Part shown: positions 4,412-16,936 of the stretch, one piece after another | Layout: every line of letters starts with the position of its first letter | Position numbering within the stretch: the stretch's first letter is position 1 | DNA from: a virus | Virus record (IMG/VR): IMGVR_UViG_3300028800_001532 | Reading direction: 5' to 3' (one strand) | Length of the DNA stretch: 32,290 nucleotides | Position numbers and translations under genes: made by a program | The notes under the pieces: model-generated | What the model was told of the DNA's origin: nothing | Seen by the model: the letters and a program-made list of their open reading frames with translations, nothing else | The model's database searches: none

Positions 4412-4439
4412 CTAACCGGCGCGTGACGTGCGCGCGATC
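4412..4439. repeat. copy 1 of a 28-nt intergenic element, actaaccggcgcgtgacgtgcgcgcgatc
   Basis: This copy is identical to the copy at 4721-4749. It shares its 22-nt core with the copy at 16915-16936. It sits right after a stop codon and about 35 nt before the next ATG. Confidence 0.7.
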
Positions 4440-4469
4440 GGGACCAGACCAAAGCAGGAGAGCGCGACG

Positions 4470-4736
4470 ATGAGTGAGAAGTTCACAATCGAGTACATCG
4501 AGGAGTTCTCGACCAAGGCGTGTACCAACGCGCACCACTGCGCCATGCTACGACAGCTTCTCGTAGAGCGGATCGCATTGATGGCGAAGATCGACGATGT
4601 GCGCAAGGAGGCGCTTCACGAGGCGGCCAACGTCTGCCACCAGCGGGCCAAGTCGTTCGCGAGCGTAGACATGGTGAAGACGTCCACATGCGACGCTGAC
4701 CGAGACGCGATTCTCGGTCTACTAACCGGCGCGTGA
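4470..4736 (+). CDS. small hypothetical protein (88 aa)
   Basis: The Shine-Dalgarno site GGAGAG lies upstream of ATG 4470. Its stop codon lies inside copy 2 of the repeat. Confidence 0.5.
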   Translation: MSEKFTIEYIEEFSTKACTNAHHCAMLRQLLVERIALMAKIDDVRKEALHEAANVCHQRAKSFASVDMVKTSTCDADRDAILGLLTGA

Positions 4737-4749
4737 CGTGCGCGCGATC
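4721..4749. repeat. copy 2 of the 28-nt intergenic element
   Basis: This copy is identical to the one at 4412-4439. It overlaps the stop codon of the 4470..4736 gene. Confidence 0.7.
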
Positions 4750-4779
4750 AAGAGCGGATCGACGGAGACGAGAGGAACG

Positions 4780-5103
4780 ATGACGAAGAAGCTCACGGCA
4801 ACTCAGCTCAAGGCACTCTCGGTGCTGGCCGATGGCAAGGAGCGACAGGTGTACGAGTGCGGGTCAACGAACACGGTGGAGTCGCTGGAGGCTCGCGACC
4901 TGATCGATTGGCGGCCGAGCGAACGCAAGCACTTTGGATCGTCGCCCGGCTACGCCCTCGTGAAGATCACCGAGGCGGGCCTCGTCGAACTGCGACGCGT
5001 GCCATGCACGGAGTGCGGGTACCCGCTCCTGTCGAACGGACACTTCGCCGCATGTGGTGCGCCGGCAGGTTCACTAGCTGGCGCCGTGCCGGTGCCCCAA
5101 TAA
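4780..5103 (+). CDS. small hypothetical protein (107 aa), possibly DNA-binding
   Basis: The Shine-Dalgarno site GAGAGGAA lies upstream of ATG 4780. The reading frame is in-frame with track ORF 4738..5103. Confidence 0.5.
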   Translation: MTKKLTATQLKALSVLADGKERQVYECGSTNTVESLEARDLIDWRPSERKHFGSSPGYALVKITEAGLVELRRVPCTECGYPLLSNGHFAACGAPAGSLAGAVPVPQ

Positions 5104-5255
5104 TCGTGCGCGCGATCGGAGGCAAGTAGCACATGTGGATTCCGGTCAGGTGGGTGCGAAACGAGATGTGGACGCCGAACAGCGCCGCGTTGCGGGAATG
5201 GATTCCGATCGAGTGGGAGTGGTGGGACCGCGCGTGAACAGATGGAGGTTTTCCC

Positions 5256-6203
5256 GTGGACATGATGGTAACGCTCTGGCCGAGCTTTCCGCACTTTGAC
5301 ACGTTCGTGCACCACCGTCGCATCAGTGGCATCCGCCTGAACAGCGCGATGATGAGCAACCCCGAGCTGGACAAGGAGTTGGAGAAGATCACATCTCTGC
5401 CCAAAGACAGTCGTCTACCCAGAACAGGCACGGTGCCGCTCCTCTTCGACATCAAAGGACGTCAGCCTCGCATCATCGAGGTGCTGCCTAACGACGAGAA
5501 CCTCGAACTGCGCCTCAACCATCCCATCACAGTCAAGACCCCGTGCCCTGTGTTGTTCAAGGCGGGGGAGGACAGCGCTCTGCTCGATCACCTGGAGGAG
5601 GACGGTCAGCGGCTCGTCTTCCGGGGTGGGCCCCACTACAGGGTCAAGGCGGGGGAGTCGTTGTACCTTAGGGATCCGTCGTTCCAGATCCGAGGGGACC
5701 TCTTCACGCCCGAAGAGGTCACAAAGATGCAGAAGTGCGTGAAGGCGGGCTTCAAGAGCTGGTTTCTCTCGTACGTCGAGGAGGAGCGCGACGTGGAGCT
5801 GTTCCTCGAACACGTCGGCAGGGACGCAGAGGTCTACCTCAAGATCGAGAGCATGAAGGGCCTCGACTTCGTGAACCGGTTTCCCGCGCTCCAGAAGCGG
5901 CACTCCGGCCTCTCGCTCGTGGCCGCGCGAGGAGACCTCTACGTGGAGATCGACCGCCCACACAACATCGCCAAGGCGTTGCAGCACATCATCGACCACG
6001 ACATGGGCGCAGTCGTGGCCTCACGCCTGCTACTCTCGACGTCAGAGGGACCGGTGCCCTCGTGCGCCGACTTCCTGGAGCTGCAATGGCTGTGGGAAGC
6101 TGGCTACCACCGCTACATGCTTTGCGATGAGCTGTGCCTTCGAGAGGACAAGCTCTCGTCAGCCCTTCAAGCGTTCGACGAATTCCGGAGCAGCTTGCCT
6201 TAG
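5256..6203 (+). CDS. pyruvate-kinase-like / PEP-utilising TIM-barrel (HpcH-aldolase-like) protein
   Basis: KIESMKGLDFVNRF resembles the pyruvate kinase KIENQEG motif. LVAARGDLYVEI resembles MVARGDLGVEI. Unlike pyruvate kinase, no separate nucleotide-binding or C-terminal regulatory domain is apparent. The Shine-Dalgarno site GGAGG lies 8 nt upstream. Confidence 0.55.
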   Translation: MDMMVTLWPSFPHFDTFVHHRRISGIRLNSAMMSNPELDKELEKITSLPKDSRLPRTGTVPLLFDIKGRQPRIIEVLPNDENLELRLNHPITVKTPCPVLFKAGEDSALLDHLEEDGQRLVFRGGPHYRVKAGESLYLRDPSFQIRGDLFTPEEVTKMQKCVKAGFKSWFLSYVEEERDVELFLEHVGRDAEVYLKIESMKGLDFVNRFPALQKRHSGLSLVAARGDLYVEIDRPHNIAKALQHIIDHDMGAVVASRLLLSTSEGPVPSCADFLELQWLWEAGYHRYMLCDELCLREDKLSSALQAFDEFRSSLP

Positions 6204-6395
6204 AGGTCGAGGACCGCGATGCCGAGGCTCGCGAAGTAGTCGTCGCTCTCCTGCTGCTTTCGATTGGGGGTCACATCCAAGACGGCCAGGGTGGGCTGCA
6301 CCTCTGGGGCACGGGGTTCGTTGGTGGTTGTGGGGTGATCCAACGGCTTGTCGCCGGTGGGATCGCACAGAACGTCCAGGATGATGTCGTCCATA
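6200..6395 (-). CDS. possible small acidic protein (65 aa)
   Basis: This is the C-terminal part of track ORF 6200..6535. GC3 in this frame is very high (about 85%). It diverges from the 6420 gene across only about 24 nt, so the call is uncertain. Confidence 0.3.
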
Positions 6396-6419
6396 CCCCA
6401 GACGGTGTACAAAAAGAGC

Positions 6420-6785
6420 ATGGCATCACCCGCACCCACACCGATCCCTCTGGATGAGACGATCGAAGCCGTCGTGAAGGTCTTCGCTGAGTCGGGTTTG
6501 GCCGGCAAGGCGCAGATCTGGAAGGCCCAGGACATCTCGGACTACGGTGGCATCCACTTCGTTCTTGACGCAACGCAGCCACGCGATGGGGACGAGCCGG
6601 AGCACATCGTCATGACGGTGATGAACAGCCCCGGCGGCCGCTGGAATCTGCATGGGGACGTAGCGGGAGAAGAGACTGGACGGATCATGCACCTGGAGCC
6701 GGTGCGTTCAACCAACCCCGAGGACGGGAAGGTCTTGGCCGAGAACCTCGTGGCCTGGTGGAAAGCGAAGCTCCCTGCGGTGTAG
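6420..6785 (+). CDS. hypothetical protein (121 aa)
   Basis: GGTGTA lies at about 6404-6409, with N10 before ATG 6420. The reading frame is in-frame with track ORF 6348..6785. Confidence 0.5.
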   Translation: MASPAPTPIPLDETIEAVVKVFAESGLAGKAQIWKAQDISDYGGIHFVLDATQPRDGDEPEHIVMTVMNSPGGRWNLHGDVAGEETGRIMHLEPVRSTNPEDGKVLAENLVAWWKAKLPAV

Positions 6786-15750: not shown

Positions 15751-15815
15751 GTAGTAGTGCGCGCAGCTCAGAGAAACTTGCGCGCGATGAACAGCGGAAC
15801 GAAGGAGACGTAGCG

Positions 15816-16037
15816 ATGGGCAAGAAGCGGAAGTACAGGGTCATCGGTTCGGTCACGATCAGCGTGAACACGGAGGTGGAGGCCACATCGAAGGCCGAAG
15901 CTGTCAGGCTCGCACAAGAGCGTCCGATGCAGTCGTTCTGCCACCAGTGCTCCACGGGCAGCCCTGACGAGGAGTGGACTACGAGCGGCGAGTTGGATGG
16001 AGAGCCGACCGACGTGCGGGTGGAAGAGGAGACCTGA
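15816..16037 (+). CDS. small hypothetical protein (73 aa)
   Basis: The Shine-Dalgarno site AAGGAG lies upstream. Tandem TGCGCGC motifs lie upstream. Confidence 0.45.
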   Translation: MGKKRKYRVIGSVTISVNTEVEATSKAEAVRLAQERPMQSFCHQCSTGSPDEEWTTSGELDGEPTDVRVEEET

Positions 16038-16039
16038 CG

Positions 16040-16285
16040 ATGGCGACGAGGAAGCGGCAGAAGGTGGCGGGTCCGTGGATGCACGGCGTCGATGGTAGCG
16101 ATCAGGGACAGCCCGTCATGCGCGACGACATCGGCGGGCCGGAGGGGGAGATCGGCATCACGCTAGCCGTCGAGTACCCGACGTGCGTCTACGTCAGGAC
16201 GTTCTTCGGTGAGGAGTGGCGCAGGGTGAAGGACCGCAAGGCGGCCGACAGGGCGCTTCGCCGCGCAGGTTGGACACTGACGTGA
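16040..16285 (+). CDS. small hypothetical protein (81 aa)
   Basis: ATG 16040 lies 3 nt after the previous stop. Confidence 0.4.
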   Translation: MATRKRQKVAGPWMHGVDGSDQGQPVMRDDIGGPEGEIGITLAVEYPTCVYVRTFFGEEWRRVKDRKAADRALRRAGWTLT

Positions 16286-16347
16286 TCACGGACACTCGCG
16301 TGGGCGCCTGCGCGCTTTTGGGACCTAGACGAAGGAAGGGTGAAGCG

Positions 16348-16542
16348 ATGGGCGTTCCGTTCGGTGAGATGGTGACACGCATCACGGTGAAGACGGGCAT
16401 GTGGGTTGACCACAAGGAGGACGGCACGACGACTCTCGTGATCGCAATGGCCAACGGCCGCACGGTGACGGACACGCTCTCCAGCGACGATCGTCACTCG
16501 CTGCTGAACGCGCTGACGTGGAAACCTGGTGATGCGAGGTAG
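16348..16542 (+). CDS. small hypothetical protein (64 aa)
   Basis: The Shine-Dalgarno site GAAGGAAGG lies upstream. A TGCGCGC motif lies about 35 nt upstream. Confidence 0.4.
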   Translation: MGVPFGEMVTRITVKTGMWVDHKEDGTTTLVIAMANGRTVTDTLSSDDRHSLLNALTWKPGDAR

Positions 16543-16610
16543 GTTCGGACGTTCGTGTGGGCCAGGTAGCCTGCGCGCATCTTGAGACGGGACAACGGAA
16601 AGGAGCGGCG

Positions 16611-16781
16611 ATGGTCCAGTTTCACCGGCACCCTGACTGCAGATGCGACGTCGCCCCAAAGGGCTGCATCGTGCATCCACCCGGCCACCGCGGCACCGAA
16701 TTGGCCACGCTCAGCGCGCCCCGCGCACAACTGGAGGCGCTGGCCTGCGCCGGCCCGCGCGGCGTTCCCCCGCATGGGTGA
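16611..16781 (+). CDS. small hypothetical protein (56 aa)
   Basis: The Shine-Dalgarno site AAAGGAG lies upstream. GC3 is high. The stop overlaps the next start (ATGGGTGA). Confidence 0.4.
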   Translation: MVQFHRHPDCRCDVAPKGCIVHPPGHRGTELATLSAPRAQLEALACAGPRGVPPHG

Positions 16782-16923
16782 GTGCAGTTCGACGGAGGCG
16801 CATGCGTGTCCGCGGTGCGGCATGTGCCGCGAGGAGTGGGCCCACGGGCGTAAGTGCGAGTTCTGGCGTCTTCTGCGAGAAGTGATGAACGTGGCGCCAC
16901 CAGCTTCGGAAAAGGGCGCGTGA
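16774..16923 (+). CDS. small Cys-rich protein (49 aa)
   Basis: The sequence carries CPRCGMC ... C. GC3 is high. The stop lies inside copy 3 of the 28-nt element. Confidence 0.35.
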   Translation: MGECSSTEAHACPRCGMCREEWAHGRKCEFWRLLREVMNVAPPASEKGA

Positions 16924-16936
16924 CGTGCGCGCGATC
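16915..16936. repeat. copy 3 (22-nt core, ggcgcgtgacgtgcgcgcgatc) of the intergenic element
   Basis: This copy matches the cores of the copies at 4412-4439 and 4721-4749. Confidence 0.65.

Follow-up and report, generated by a model that had tools for sequence, protein, structure and literature searches.

REP/BIME elements are imperfect chromosomal palindromes of 20-40 nt, often found as inverted pairs, and the conserved inverted repeats (CIRs) of the Streptomyces phage phiC31 are 17-bp symmetric operators of a known repressor. In T4-type phages, promoter-early stem-loops (PeSLs) are laid out as stop codon, signal, stem-loop, Shine-Dalgarno (SD) sequence and start codon in ORFan-rich regions, and both promoter and terminator activity were demonstrated for them (Arbiol 2010, PMC2839356; Comeau 2014, PMC4122927). 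Here, we describe a family of junction boxes in a stretch of 32,290 nucleotides of viral DNA (the window), whose source is a probable huge phage. An element repeated three times at its gene junctions had originally been predicted to be an operator, a terminator-promoter cassette or a recombination site; the cassette comes closest in architecture, as in T4 PeSLs, but its terminator part is unlikely.

Results

The 29-nt repeat ACTAACCGGCGCGTGACGTGCGCGCGATC is identical at 4411-4439 and 4721-4749, as predicted except for a first coordinate that was off by one (4411, not 4412), and the bases flanking these two copies differ. Its 22-nt core GGCGCGTGACGTGCGCGCGATC is indeed present again at 16915-16936. 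With up to 3 mismatches, the 18-mer GGCGCGTGACGTGCGCGC gave 4 matches compared to 0.22 expected by chance, a number reached in none of 100 shuffles, the fourth match being GGCGCGTGATCTGCGCGC at 15151-15168.

A search for further copies, as had been proposed, uncovered a wider family of ~15 co-oriented junction copies in the window, with TGCGCGC, often followed by GA, as its core. On the + strand, TGCGCGC is also found at 4211, 5107, 13105, 13379, 13916, 14259, 15162, 15758, 15779, 16309, 16572 and 17245, and degenerate copies lie at 17493-17523 (Table 1). The original element is a double-box, hairpin-capable subtype of this family. Fourteen of the 20 + strand TGCGCGC copies are fully intergenic, compared to 13.8% of intergenic DNA in the window (P = 1.6e-8), all junction copies are oriented as the genes, and a T precedes GCGCGC in 15 of the 16 intergenic ones. 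The additional copies are thus strongly biased in position, contrary to what a simple dispersed repeat would show, and the element is a non-random and strictly oriented gene-junction signal.

Two arrays of small + strand genes, which are accessory and probably early, contain the boxes (4.05-5.25 kb and 13.1-17.55 kb), and 14.6 kb of flanking sequence contained zero copies. A hairpin of at least 25 bp stands between the upstream operon and array 1, and a long inverted repeat has the box at 4206-4217 at the end of its 3' arm. Array 2 encodes an RHH_1 protein (13728-13904; E = 5e-7), with its own direct repeat upstream (TGCGCTGTACGTAC, twice), which differs from the TGCGCGC box.

Table 1. Gene arrays and junction boxes of the window
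Feature	Position	Strand	Context
Array 1, small ORFan genes 4234-4410, 4470-4736, 4780-5103, 5133-5237, then 5262-6203	4234-6203	+	
Array 2, ~18 small genes	13134-17840	+	
Single box TGACGTGCGCGC	4206-4217	+	16 nt ahead of start 4234, first gene of array 1
Original copy 1, ACTAACC-GGCGCG-TGACG-TGCGCGC-GATC, 29-nt double box	4411-4439	+	directly after stop TGA 4408-4410; next start 4470
Original copy 2, identical 29 nt	4721-4749	+	internal TGA 4734-4736 is the stop of gene 4470-4736; next start 4780
Single box CGTGCGCGCGATC	5105-5117	+	3 nt past stop TAA 5101-5103; 19 nt before ATG 5133
Single box TGAcacccTGCGCGC, first of array 2	13105-13111	+	5 nt past stop; 22 nt before start 13134
Single box CCCTGCGCGCGGG	13379-13385	+	11 nt past stop; 5' end of a 151-nt gap, then RHH-containing operon
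Single box	13916-13922	+	11 nt past RHH gene stop; SD GAGGG adjoins; start 13936
Double box GGCGCGCA-N12-TGCGCGCC, 9-bp stem	14239-14266	+	stop TGA 14248-14250 in loop
Double-box variant GGCGCG-TGATC-TGCGCGC	15151-15168	+	overlaps 3' end of ORF 14996-15181; next start 15197
Two boxes 21 nt apart, TGCGCGCA ... TGCGCGC GAT	15758-15785	+	7 nt past stop TAA 15748-15750; start 15816
Single box	16309-16315	+	downstream leader 90% identical to leader of 15162; start 16348
Single box TGCGCGCA	16572-16578	+	start 16611; leader resembles L245 copy 5 and L264 10610
Original copy 3, 22-nt double box	16915-16936	+	internal TGA 16921-16923 closes an uncalled coding-like ORF; start 16965
Double-box variant, one base shorter, GGCGCG-TGAG-TGCGCGC	17235-17251	+	TGA 17241-17243 is the stop of gene 16965-17243; SD adjoins
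Degenerate copy GTGCGCGG ... GGCGCGATC	17493-17523	+	ahead of last gene of array 2 (start 17538)

Most copies lie 0-29 nt past a stop codon and 13-34 nt ahead of the next start. The stop-to-box distance is 0-12 nt in 22 of 29 measured cases (median ~5 nt), and boxes are on average nearer the upstream stop than the downstream start. The minimum box-to-start distance of 12-13 nt corresponds to just an SD and its spacer, and seven window copies cluster at 28-34 nt. The SD itself is 0 to ~20 nt from the box, a good SD directly adjoining it in ~7 of 38 copies (e.g. TGCGCGCGAGGAGG). In array 2, boxes are found at junctions with gaps of at least 28 nt (the last one, 17476/17538, having a degenerate copy only), and overlapping or coupled junctions have none. 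Each array carries a box ahead of its first gene (4211 and 13105) and none past its last gene (6203 and 17840), and some SD-led genes with short gaps also lack one (12525, 12821 and 5262). In three long gaps (13379, 14259 and, in contig L023, 9861), the box stays beside the stop codon. Second boxes are 10-12 or 20-21 nt away, near one or two helical turns, and the family shows no conserved sequence upstream of the box.

All three original copies abut or overlap a stop codon, as had been noted, but the SD is ~17-20 nt past the 3' end of the element and not 35. Their start codons are 32-34 nt past TGCGCGC, or 28-34 nt when four related copies are added. The element, which rewrites the C-terminus of gene 4470-4736, gives stops in more than one frame (TGA, TAA and TGA at 4408-4426); the ORF ending at 16921-16923 was not called as a gene, and its final 47 codons resemble coding sequence (GC3 0.72-0.90). 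Double-box copies often have the stop codon inside the loop (4734, 14248 and 17241).

Other features of the original prediction did not extend to the family. A GC partner arm for the proposed hairpin exists in only ~40% of copies, junction RNAs fold no better than shuffles, one arm substitution in contig L245 is uncompensated and no Rfam family matches; it is sequence rather than pairing that is kept among copies. Neither the CRE nor the Dam idea was supported: for a prokaryotic virus there is no ground to read TGACGTG as CRE-like, the loop varies among other copies (TGAAG, TGAAAG, TGATC or TGAG), and the GATC Dam site follows the box in only 4 of ~15 window copies. For the candidate DNA-binding protein encoded at 4780-5103, the winged-helix signal was weak and not significant (pLDDT 64; best Foldseek E = 0.06), and its homologues are in loci without the motif. 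No sigma-70 hexamers (-35/-10) were detected at boxes, and elsewhere the window has canonical terminators and a separate leaderless-start motif (GGTGTA-N10-ATG).

Conservation, on the other hand, reaches other phage contigs: the same junction box was found in three of them (two ~100 kb phages and one 1.5 kb fragment), between stop and SD, with 11 copies in L264, 6 in L023 and 6 in L245. It was not found in ~360 other GC-rich loci, nor in cultured phages. The box regions of these three contigs have almost no proteins in common with the window. A gene module with 85% nucleotide identity is common to the window and unrelated phages, and its breakpoint is the start codon, not a box. A complete box-to-ATG leader can recur before unrelated genes, either inside the window (repeats D1 and D4) or in the window and L245; L245 also has two identical copies of a 55-nt cassette, and the same leader subtypes are found in different contigs. 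A tyrosine recombinase is encoded beside the L023 array and L023-type phages carry integrases; reading 47 kb around the window revealed no recombinase.

Discussion

Altogether, the box family most likely sets gene expression at each junction. We tentatively propose, as a plausible rather than a probable reading, that the box acts as a transcription signal of ORFan genes, portable and phage-specific, in a T4 PeSL-like architecture. The TGCGCGC box would be the recognition core of a promoter-type, non-sigma-70 site, with transcription starting at or just past it, so that the mRNA would always include the purine-rich leader and the SD. Each gene, or pair of genes coupled in translation, would be preceded by a portable cassette for its expression, made of box, leader and SD, and the ORFans would be shuffled as cassettes recombine. 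We infer here an action on transcription initiation, the start position and a reading factor. Since the other box-bearing phages have canonical sigma-70-type promoters at other junctions, the box belongs to another class of signals. The copies with an adjoining SD rule out that it is a -10-type element from which transcription starts 6-8 nt further on, and force the start point into or onto the box; as sequences upstream are unconserved, recognition would then rest on 7-9 bp. No shared RNA polymerase, sigma factor or activator was found among the four contigs (13-47 kb read of each long contig). The average nearness of the box to the stop, kept in the three long gaps, fits a 3'-end or RNA-level role as well, and the SD-led genes without a box also speak against this reading.

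It is unlikely, if still credible, that the box is a DNA operator or roadblock of the stoperator kind, where a phage or host protein would bind double-stranded TGCGCGC, so that RNA polymerase would be blocked or modulated at every junction, for instance as a way of silencing the ORFan arrays. The short asymmetric core, its orientation tied to transcription and the short intergenic gaps are as in stoperators (PMC9283540), and the conservation of sequence but not pairing, the RHH_1 gene inside array 2, the integrases of L023-type phages and the helical spacing of second boxes would all suit such a site. However, the 10-12 nt spacings are not independent observations because they mostly come from one homologous subfamily, and the RHH gene has a different repeat upstream. 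Moreover, a roadblock would require a far lower density than one box at nearly every junction, boxes are clustered in two arrays instead of being spread over the region read, no shared repressor was found in the stretches of the contigs that were read, and operator specificity usually diverges among unrelated phages, whereas the core is identical here.

There is a similarly modest chance that the signal is intercistronic and acts on RNA, UGCGCGC being bound or cut in the polycistronic mRNA by a phage or host factor. It could then be a processing site that frees a cistron with a 5' SD, a translational operator or a signal by which reinitiation is coupled to termination. Precedents for such signals are T4 RegA, the cleavage of early-gene SDs by T4 RegB, and the RNase III sites of T7. 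The box is always in the transcribed stop-to-SD spacer, where it may adjoin either, it is missing from coupled or overlapping genes, its double form often has the stop codon in the loop, and the hairpin before array 1 would suit RNase III. Still, the variable box-SD distance, the GC stem that would bury the motif in the double-box form, the independently initiated cistrons without a box (see above), the Rfam and folding results and the fact that no candidate nuclease or RNA-binding protein was identified all argue against it.

We find it rather improbable that boxes are only boundaries of mobile or recombining cassettes, without a regulatory role of their own, left as scars or hot spots of homologous or site-specific ORFan exchange among co-infecting phages. 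Unrelated genes flanked by identical 29-nt and 55-nt junctions, leader subtypes common to different contigs, the multi-frame stops and rewritten C-terminus, the 85%-identical module and the recombinase next to the L023 array point in this direction. Nevertheless, recombination among PeSLs is a by-product of a regulatory element (PMC2839356), the shared module breaks at the start codon, and no recombinase was seen around the window. That an exact 7-nt core, T included, is kept in divergent phages and subfamilies speaks for selection on the sequence itself.

An intrinsic terminator or attenuator hairpin that would end or damp transcription past each small gene is very doubtful, even if ~7 window copies have 5-9 bp GCGCG(U)-loop-GCGCGC stems right past or over the stop (local stems estimated at roughly -10 to -17 kcal/mol) and TTTG or TTTT follows copies 15162 and 16309. 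Over half of all copies lack a partner arm, no copy has a U-tract, a terminator scan did not exceed shuffles in its number of sites and placed none at a box, and no box stands behind the last gene of either array; a canonical terminator is instead used at 24731-24780 (16-bp stem followed by UCUUUUCUUUU, z = -6). Finally, a sigma-54 (-24/-12) promoter, suggested by the fit of GGCGCG-N4-GTGC to TGGCACG-N4-TTGC with GG-N10-GC correctly spaced (by inspection) in the three original copies, 15151 and 13105, is highly improbable considering that the spacing is off by one in 17235-17251 and fails in all other window copies and every L023 copy checked (12456 and 12730), that the predicted start would remove the SD in some copies, that no enhancer-binding protein was seen and that phages rarely use sigma-54.

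Compared with known systems, the boxes are like phiC31 CIRs and early promoters in being highly conserved GC-rich intergenic repeats in the early region of a phage of a high-GC host, but they are asymmetric and only some copies are paired. Like REP/BIME, they include short GC-rich palindromic units past stop codons within operons, but palindromic units are a minority among the boxes, all of which run in the direction of the genes. Stoperators of Cluster A mycobacteriophages (L5 gp71 type; PMC9283540) are also short, asymmetric multi-copy sites in short intergenic spaces with a transcription-linked orientation; they are, however, genome-wide 13-mers bound by a known immunity repressor, whereas the box has a core of 7-9 nt, clusters at nearly every junction of two arrays and is common to phages with unrelated genes. 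The start-associated sequences (SAS/ESAS) of Cluster K mycobacteriophages (PMC3203893) are oriented asymmetric repeats as well, with 11-19 copies before genes of the non-structural region, sometimes overlapping the upstream stop codon, and a subset has an extra upstream inverted repeat whose departures break RNA pairing. Their sequences are unrelated to the box, and SAS are 13 bp long, include the SD and lie 3-7 bp from the start, whereas the TGCGCGC box precedes a separate SD and is 12-36 nt away from the start.

In PeSLs, the promoter is a sigma-70 consensus one preceded by an AT-rich region, whereas the box is a GC-rich 7-mer without -35/-10 hexamers, whose stem-loop occurs in only ~40% of copies and lacks terminator features. 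Both are nonetheless small composite cassettes with the same stop-signal-stem-SD-start layout in ORFan-rich plastic regions, and both come in several subclasses, with one cassette found before unrelated genes, implying recombination between cassettes.

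The repeated element belongs to a family of TGCGCGC boxes

The 29-nt sequence ACTAACCGGCGCGTGACGTGCGCGCGATC occurs identically at 4411-4439 and 4721-4749, two sites that lie 310 nt apart with one gene in between, and its 22-nt core is found again at 16915-16936. The repeat originally predicted at three gene junctions is therefore real, apart from a first coordinate that was one base off (4411 and not 4412), and it is part of a larger family than that prediction described. A pattern search for the 18-mer GGCGCGTGACGTGCGCGC that tolerated at most 3 mismatches found 4 matches where 0.22 were expected, a number that none of 100 shuffled sequences gave. 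The wider search for further copies that had been proposed returned 20 TGCGCGC heptamers on the + strand of the window (29 on both strands, compared with 13.7 expected); 14 of these 20 are wholly intergenic, while intergenic DNA makes up 13.8% of the window (binomial P = 1.6e-8).

The junction copies are confined to two arrays (4.05-5.25 kb and 13.1-17.55 kb) composed of small genes on the + strand, and 14.6 kb of flanking sequence contains no box on either strand. A T precedes GCGCGC in 15/16 intergenic copies. In the second array, every junction gap of at least 28 nt carries a box (only a degenerate copy in the last one), and the box is absent from overlapping or coupled junctions. Most boxes stand 1-29 nt after the upstream stop codon and 13-34 nt before the next start codon, with two long exceptions for the latter distance, and a separate Shine-Dalgarno (SD) sequence is located downstream of the box. 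A box precedes the first gene of each array, and none is found beyond the last gene.

The contact with stop codons proposed for the three initial copies was confirmed: in copy 1 the stop at 4408-4410 directly precedes the element, the internal TGA of copy 2 (4734-4736) ends gene 4470-4736, and that of copy 3 terminates an ORF, absent from the gene calls, of which the final 47 codons look coding (GC3 0.72-0.90). The SD was placed too far away, since it lies ~17-20 nt past the element instead of ~35 nt; the start codon follows TGCGCGC by 32-34 nt in these copies. The coding-like stretch before copy 3 (16783-16923) is in another frame than the called gene 16611-16781 and encodes a zinc-ribbon-like peptide with CPRCGMC; it represents a small gene missed in gene calling or else the product of a frameshift, whether real or an assembly error.

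Positions of the boxes and of other features of the window, with one gene of locus L001
Feature	Position	Strand	Remark
Junction boxes, first array	4211, 4429, 4739, 5107	+	TGCGCGC
Junction boxes, second array	13105, 13379, 13916, 14259, 15758, 15779, 16309, 16572, 16926, 17245	+	TGCGCGC
Box overlapping the 3' end of an ORF	15162	+	TGCGCGC
Degenerate copy	17493-17523	+	box family
Fourth match to GGCGCGTGACGTGCGCGC	15151-15168	+	pattern search, up to 3 mismatches
Canonical intrinsic terminator	24731-24780		after the MVP-like gene; 16-bp GC-rich stem, then UCUUUUCUUUU; z = -6
GGTGTA start motif	1090-1108, 8902-8920, 9157-9176, 21495-21513, 31711-31729, among others	-	
GGTGTA start motif	6779-6796, 9217-9235, 21709-21727, 25158-25176, 30808-30829, among others		
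Auxiliary genes	1187-2212, 3199-4050, 9265-12268, 28480-29427, 31051-31713 (-); L001 3689-4240		kinds named in the text

Sequence rather than pairing is conserved in the box

Among 35 copies from four contigs, aligned by anchoring on TGCGCGC, this heptamer is the sole invariant part, which is partly a consequence of the anchoring. The second position after the box shows a weak preference for A (GA in 18/35 copies), and the purine-rich SD region comes next. In ~40% of copies, a second GCGCG(C) lies 10-23 nt away and could pair with the box in a 5-9 bp GC stem; the element first noticed corresponds to this double-box subtype (GGCGCG-TGACG-TGCGCGC), of which the loop also exists as TGATC, TGAG, TGAAG or TGAAAG. 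The predicted hairpin can thus be drawn for that share of the copies, but the RNA folds of the junctions were no more stable than those of shuffled sequences (z from -1.5 to +1.1), and an arm that is changed to GGCGCC in L245, a 1.5 kb fragment carrying boxes, has no compensating change in its partner, indicating that it is the sequence, and not the pairing, that is conserved. A helical phasing of paired boxes was suggestive and was set aside, as its data points come mostly from one subfamily. The suggested resemblances to a CRE and to a Dam site found no support.

Conservation also extends to whole cassettes. Downstream leader subtypes recur before unrelated genes, both within the window (repeats D1 and D4) and between the window and L245, and the identical cassettes of 29 nt and 55 nt, like the shared leader subtypes, are each found ahead of unrelated genes.

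The box is shared by a probable huge phage and unrelated contigs

The window corresponds to bases 11368-43657 of the ENA contig ERZ27245399 k141_1829800 (218,019 bp), has a GC content of 63% and contains neither tRNA genes nor Rfam matches at the family gathering score, so that no element of these kinds was found to account for the box. Its products include a DnaJ-Ser/Thr kinase fusion, an HDAC-like deacetylase, Ham1, SpoU, EF-Ts, an ADP-ribosylglycohydrolase and a HisG-like protein with an N-terminal P-loop; together with a PTH2 peptidyl-tRNA hydrolase, these make up the auxiliary set of the window and L001. Auxiliary genes of these kinds are typical of huge phages, and a huge phage is the probable source of the window. 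The HisG-like protein has no viral relatives, and the contigs with HDAC relatives in IMG/VR (L006-L019) have only that gene in common with the window, with no synteny and no motif.

The same order of stop, box, SD and start was found in three other contigs. L264/L118 (IMGVR_UViG_3300044946_000220, 102 kb; 102,034 bp in full) has 11 copies within 4 kb, next to genes for RNA ligases, a DnaN clamp and a weak RecT-like match; L023 (JGI Ga0672854_0000237, 103 kb; 103,450 bp) has 6 copies; and L245 (ODAK010232497.1, 1.5 kb) has 6 junction copies, three of which show the exact 18-mer with a window-like 5' flank. Almost no proteins are common to the window and the box regions of these contigs. Pattern scans of ~360 other GC-rich loci gave at most 1-3 junction-type matches each, showing that box arrays are rare and specific; Ga0310754_0000031 is an example of a relative that lacks the box. 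In further searches, the exact 22-mer had no match in viral contigs and the 22-mer had one in genomes (coding, in a Sphingomonas MAG), the 18-mer had at least 118 matches in metagenomes, almost all of them isolated chance hits within bacterial genes and only L245 being informative, and a scan with TGCGCGCGAGGAGG gave 118 loci with an array in none. No near-identical DNA was found in cultured phages for 3000-18000, the 55-nt cassette or the protein encoded at 13936-14250; tblastx comparisons between loci gave noise from sum statistics and were discarded.

Other junctions of L023 and L264, distinct from those with boxes, carry TTGACA-N17-TAnnnT promoters. These canonical promoters are repeated (L023 6813-6873, 7429-7472 and 5560-5715; L264 7851-7890) in the forms TTGACAAGCT...N17...CATACT or TTGACA-N17-TAGTCT-N6-ATG, and the position of the one at L264 7851-7890 would yield a leaderless mRNA.

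A separate case of similarity concerns gene 14334-14999, of which the first ~70 codons (14334-14549) share 78-86% nucleotide identity with genes of otherwise unrelated phage or prophage contigs of 60-100 kb (L020-L024), one of them binned as Gemmatimonadaceae. The similarity begins exactly at the start codon, which suggests a recent exchange of this module.

Proteins that might read the box

The protein encoded at 4780-5103 had been put forward as a binder of the element. Its structural model is of low confidence (pLDDT 64), its matches to MarR or winged-helix proteins are weak (best E = 0.06) and the junctions of its homologues (L265-L267) lack the motif. The sole clear DNA binder of the arrays is the RHH_1 protein encoded at 13728-13904 (E = 5e-7), whose gene has a direct repeat upstream that differs from the box. 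No regulator, polymerase or factor common to the box contigs was found in the parts read.

The RHH_1 gene is the second of a two-gene operon preceded by a 151-nt gap, in which (A/T)TGCGCTGTACGTAC, including the palindrome GTACGTAC, is directly repeated at ~13404-13418 and 13452-13466, and which also contains a promoter-like TTGCGC-N17-TAGATT. This arrangement is probably that of an autoregulated module (13368-13904).

The box as a candidate signal for gene expression

Considering its orientation, its tie to independently initiated cistrons, the conservation of whole cassettes and their sharing by unrelated phages, the explanation that fits best is that the box acts as a cis signal for gene expression. 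It may be a phage-specific, initiation-type transcription signal with a start point at or on the box, a reading that we advance tentatively. It is favoured by the presence of a box before the first gene of each array and of none after the last, by a minimum distance from box to start codon that equals an SD plus its spacer, and by the precedent of the promoter-early stem-loop (PeSL) cassettes of T4-type phages for such a layout. An SD directly abutting the box in ~7/38 copies rules out a start point farther downstream. That abutment, a tight coupling to the upstream stop, no sequence conserved upstream of the box across the family and no shared factor found also keep other readings alive.

Two of these appear rather unlikely to a similar degree. 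The box could be a stoperator-like operator or roadblock, with which its asymmetry and orientation along transcription are consistent, or it could act in the RNA as an intercistronic signal, with which the stop coupling would fit and against which the shuffle-like folds speak. A purely recombinational boundary is improbable; it would suit identical cassettes ahead of unrelated genes. A Chi-like site was rejected: GCGCGTG is the Lactococcus Chi sequence, but such a site would have no reason to be restricted to spacers between stop and SD.

A terminator function is less probable still: a scan for GC-rich hairpins immediately followed by a U-tract found no site at any box, and the hairpin, present in under half of the copies, lacks the U-tract. 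A sigma-54 promoter is very improbable, since GG-N10-GC (-24/-12) is limited to the double-box subtype and 13105 and fails in the other copies inspected.

Further candidates were discarded. The box is not a sigma-70 promoter: a scan of 1-19000 gave a single pair of TTGACA-like and TATAAT-like hexamers spaced by 16-18 bp where 2.3 were expected, no box coincides with such a pair, and TAnnnT is absent downstream of every copy. If the box were a -35 element, the matching -10 would land on or past the SD or start codon; if it were a -10 element with its start downstream, the abutting SDs would conflict with it. The spacing is wrong for a CRISPR array (28-37 nt repeats with short regular spacers), and the element is too short for an integron attC site.

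Other signals of the window

GGTGTA-N7-13-ATG occurs 14 times in the window compared with 0.31 expected, mostly at called gene starts without SD, once directly after the terminator (at 24781) and in further copies in the flanks. It looks like a promoter/start motif for leaderless mRNAs, defining a class of gene starts separate from the TGCGCGC/SD class.

An inverted repeat with 33-nt arms (4063-4217) fills the 183 nt that separate the HDAC-like gene from the first array. It forms a hairpin of at least 25 bp (z = -3.0), has TGACGTGCGCGC at the end of its 3' arm, and may serve for RNase III-type processing or as a regulatory structure.

Gene 22123-24711 encodes an 862-aa protein with major-vault-protein (MVP) shoulder, Vault_3 and SPFH domains that shares 38% identity with proteins from the uncultured huge phages LR756500/1/3. 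Vault-like proteins are, to our knowledge, unusual in phages.

Significance and comparison with known systems

The element is real and moderately interesting, and its mechanism is a proposal. In its broadest form, the box would be the cis signal of an undescribed phage expression system, in which either a factor or polymerase initiates at a GC box of 7-9 nt or an endoribonuclease punctuates a polycistronic early mRNA, with portable box-leader-SD cassettes moving expression-ready ORFans between a huge phage, at least 218 kb in size, and soil phages of ~100 kb that are unrelated to it; as a whole, we regard this as doubtful. As far as we know, huge phages are almost solely metagenomic and the timing of their ORFan expression is a blank. 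Here, a sharply defined cis signal stands at nearly every junction of two arrays and is common to other uncultured phages. It offers a way to delimit a co-regulated, probably early, class of genes, to look for its cognate factor and to connect contigs with a common host or regulatory system. If the cassettes are portable, the PeSL principle of regulatory cassettes as vehicles of gene shuffling extends beyond T4-like phages; if the box is merely a lineage-specific promoter, it is an annotation aid for such contigs and ordinary in kind.

As in PeSLs, the box lies between the stop of one small gene and the SD or start of the next, in plastic regions rich in ORFans; the strong sigma-70 early promoter of PeSLs is absent. 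PeSLs have a stable stem-loop that acts as a terminator or attenuator, and here ~40% of copies could form a stem; PeSLs also mediate shuffling, and here the recurrence of a cassette or leader ahead of unrelated genes is what shuffling would predict. Like stoperators, the box is asymmetric and oriented with transcription in short intergenic gaps, but stoperators have a cognate immunity repressor and sites also in the early lytic promoter, whereas no shared regulator was found here in the parts read. The SAS of Cluster K, 13 bp long, includes the SD within its motif and is found 3-7 bp ahead of the start codon, while the box has its SD as a separate sequence downstream and stands 12-36 nt from the start. 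We found no description of this motif in the literature, where TGCGCGC in phages gave one irrelevant oligonucleotide. Conserved, oriented intergenic repeats of phage non-structural regions are a familiar kind of element from PeSLs, stoperators and SAS/ESAS; what is new is the sequence itself, that it has no sigma-70 component, and that both a huge phage and unrelated ~100 kb phages carry it.
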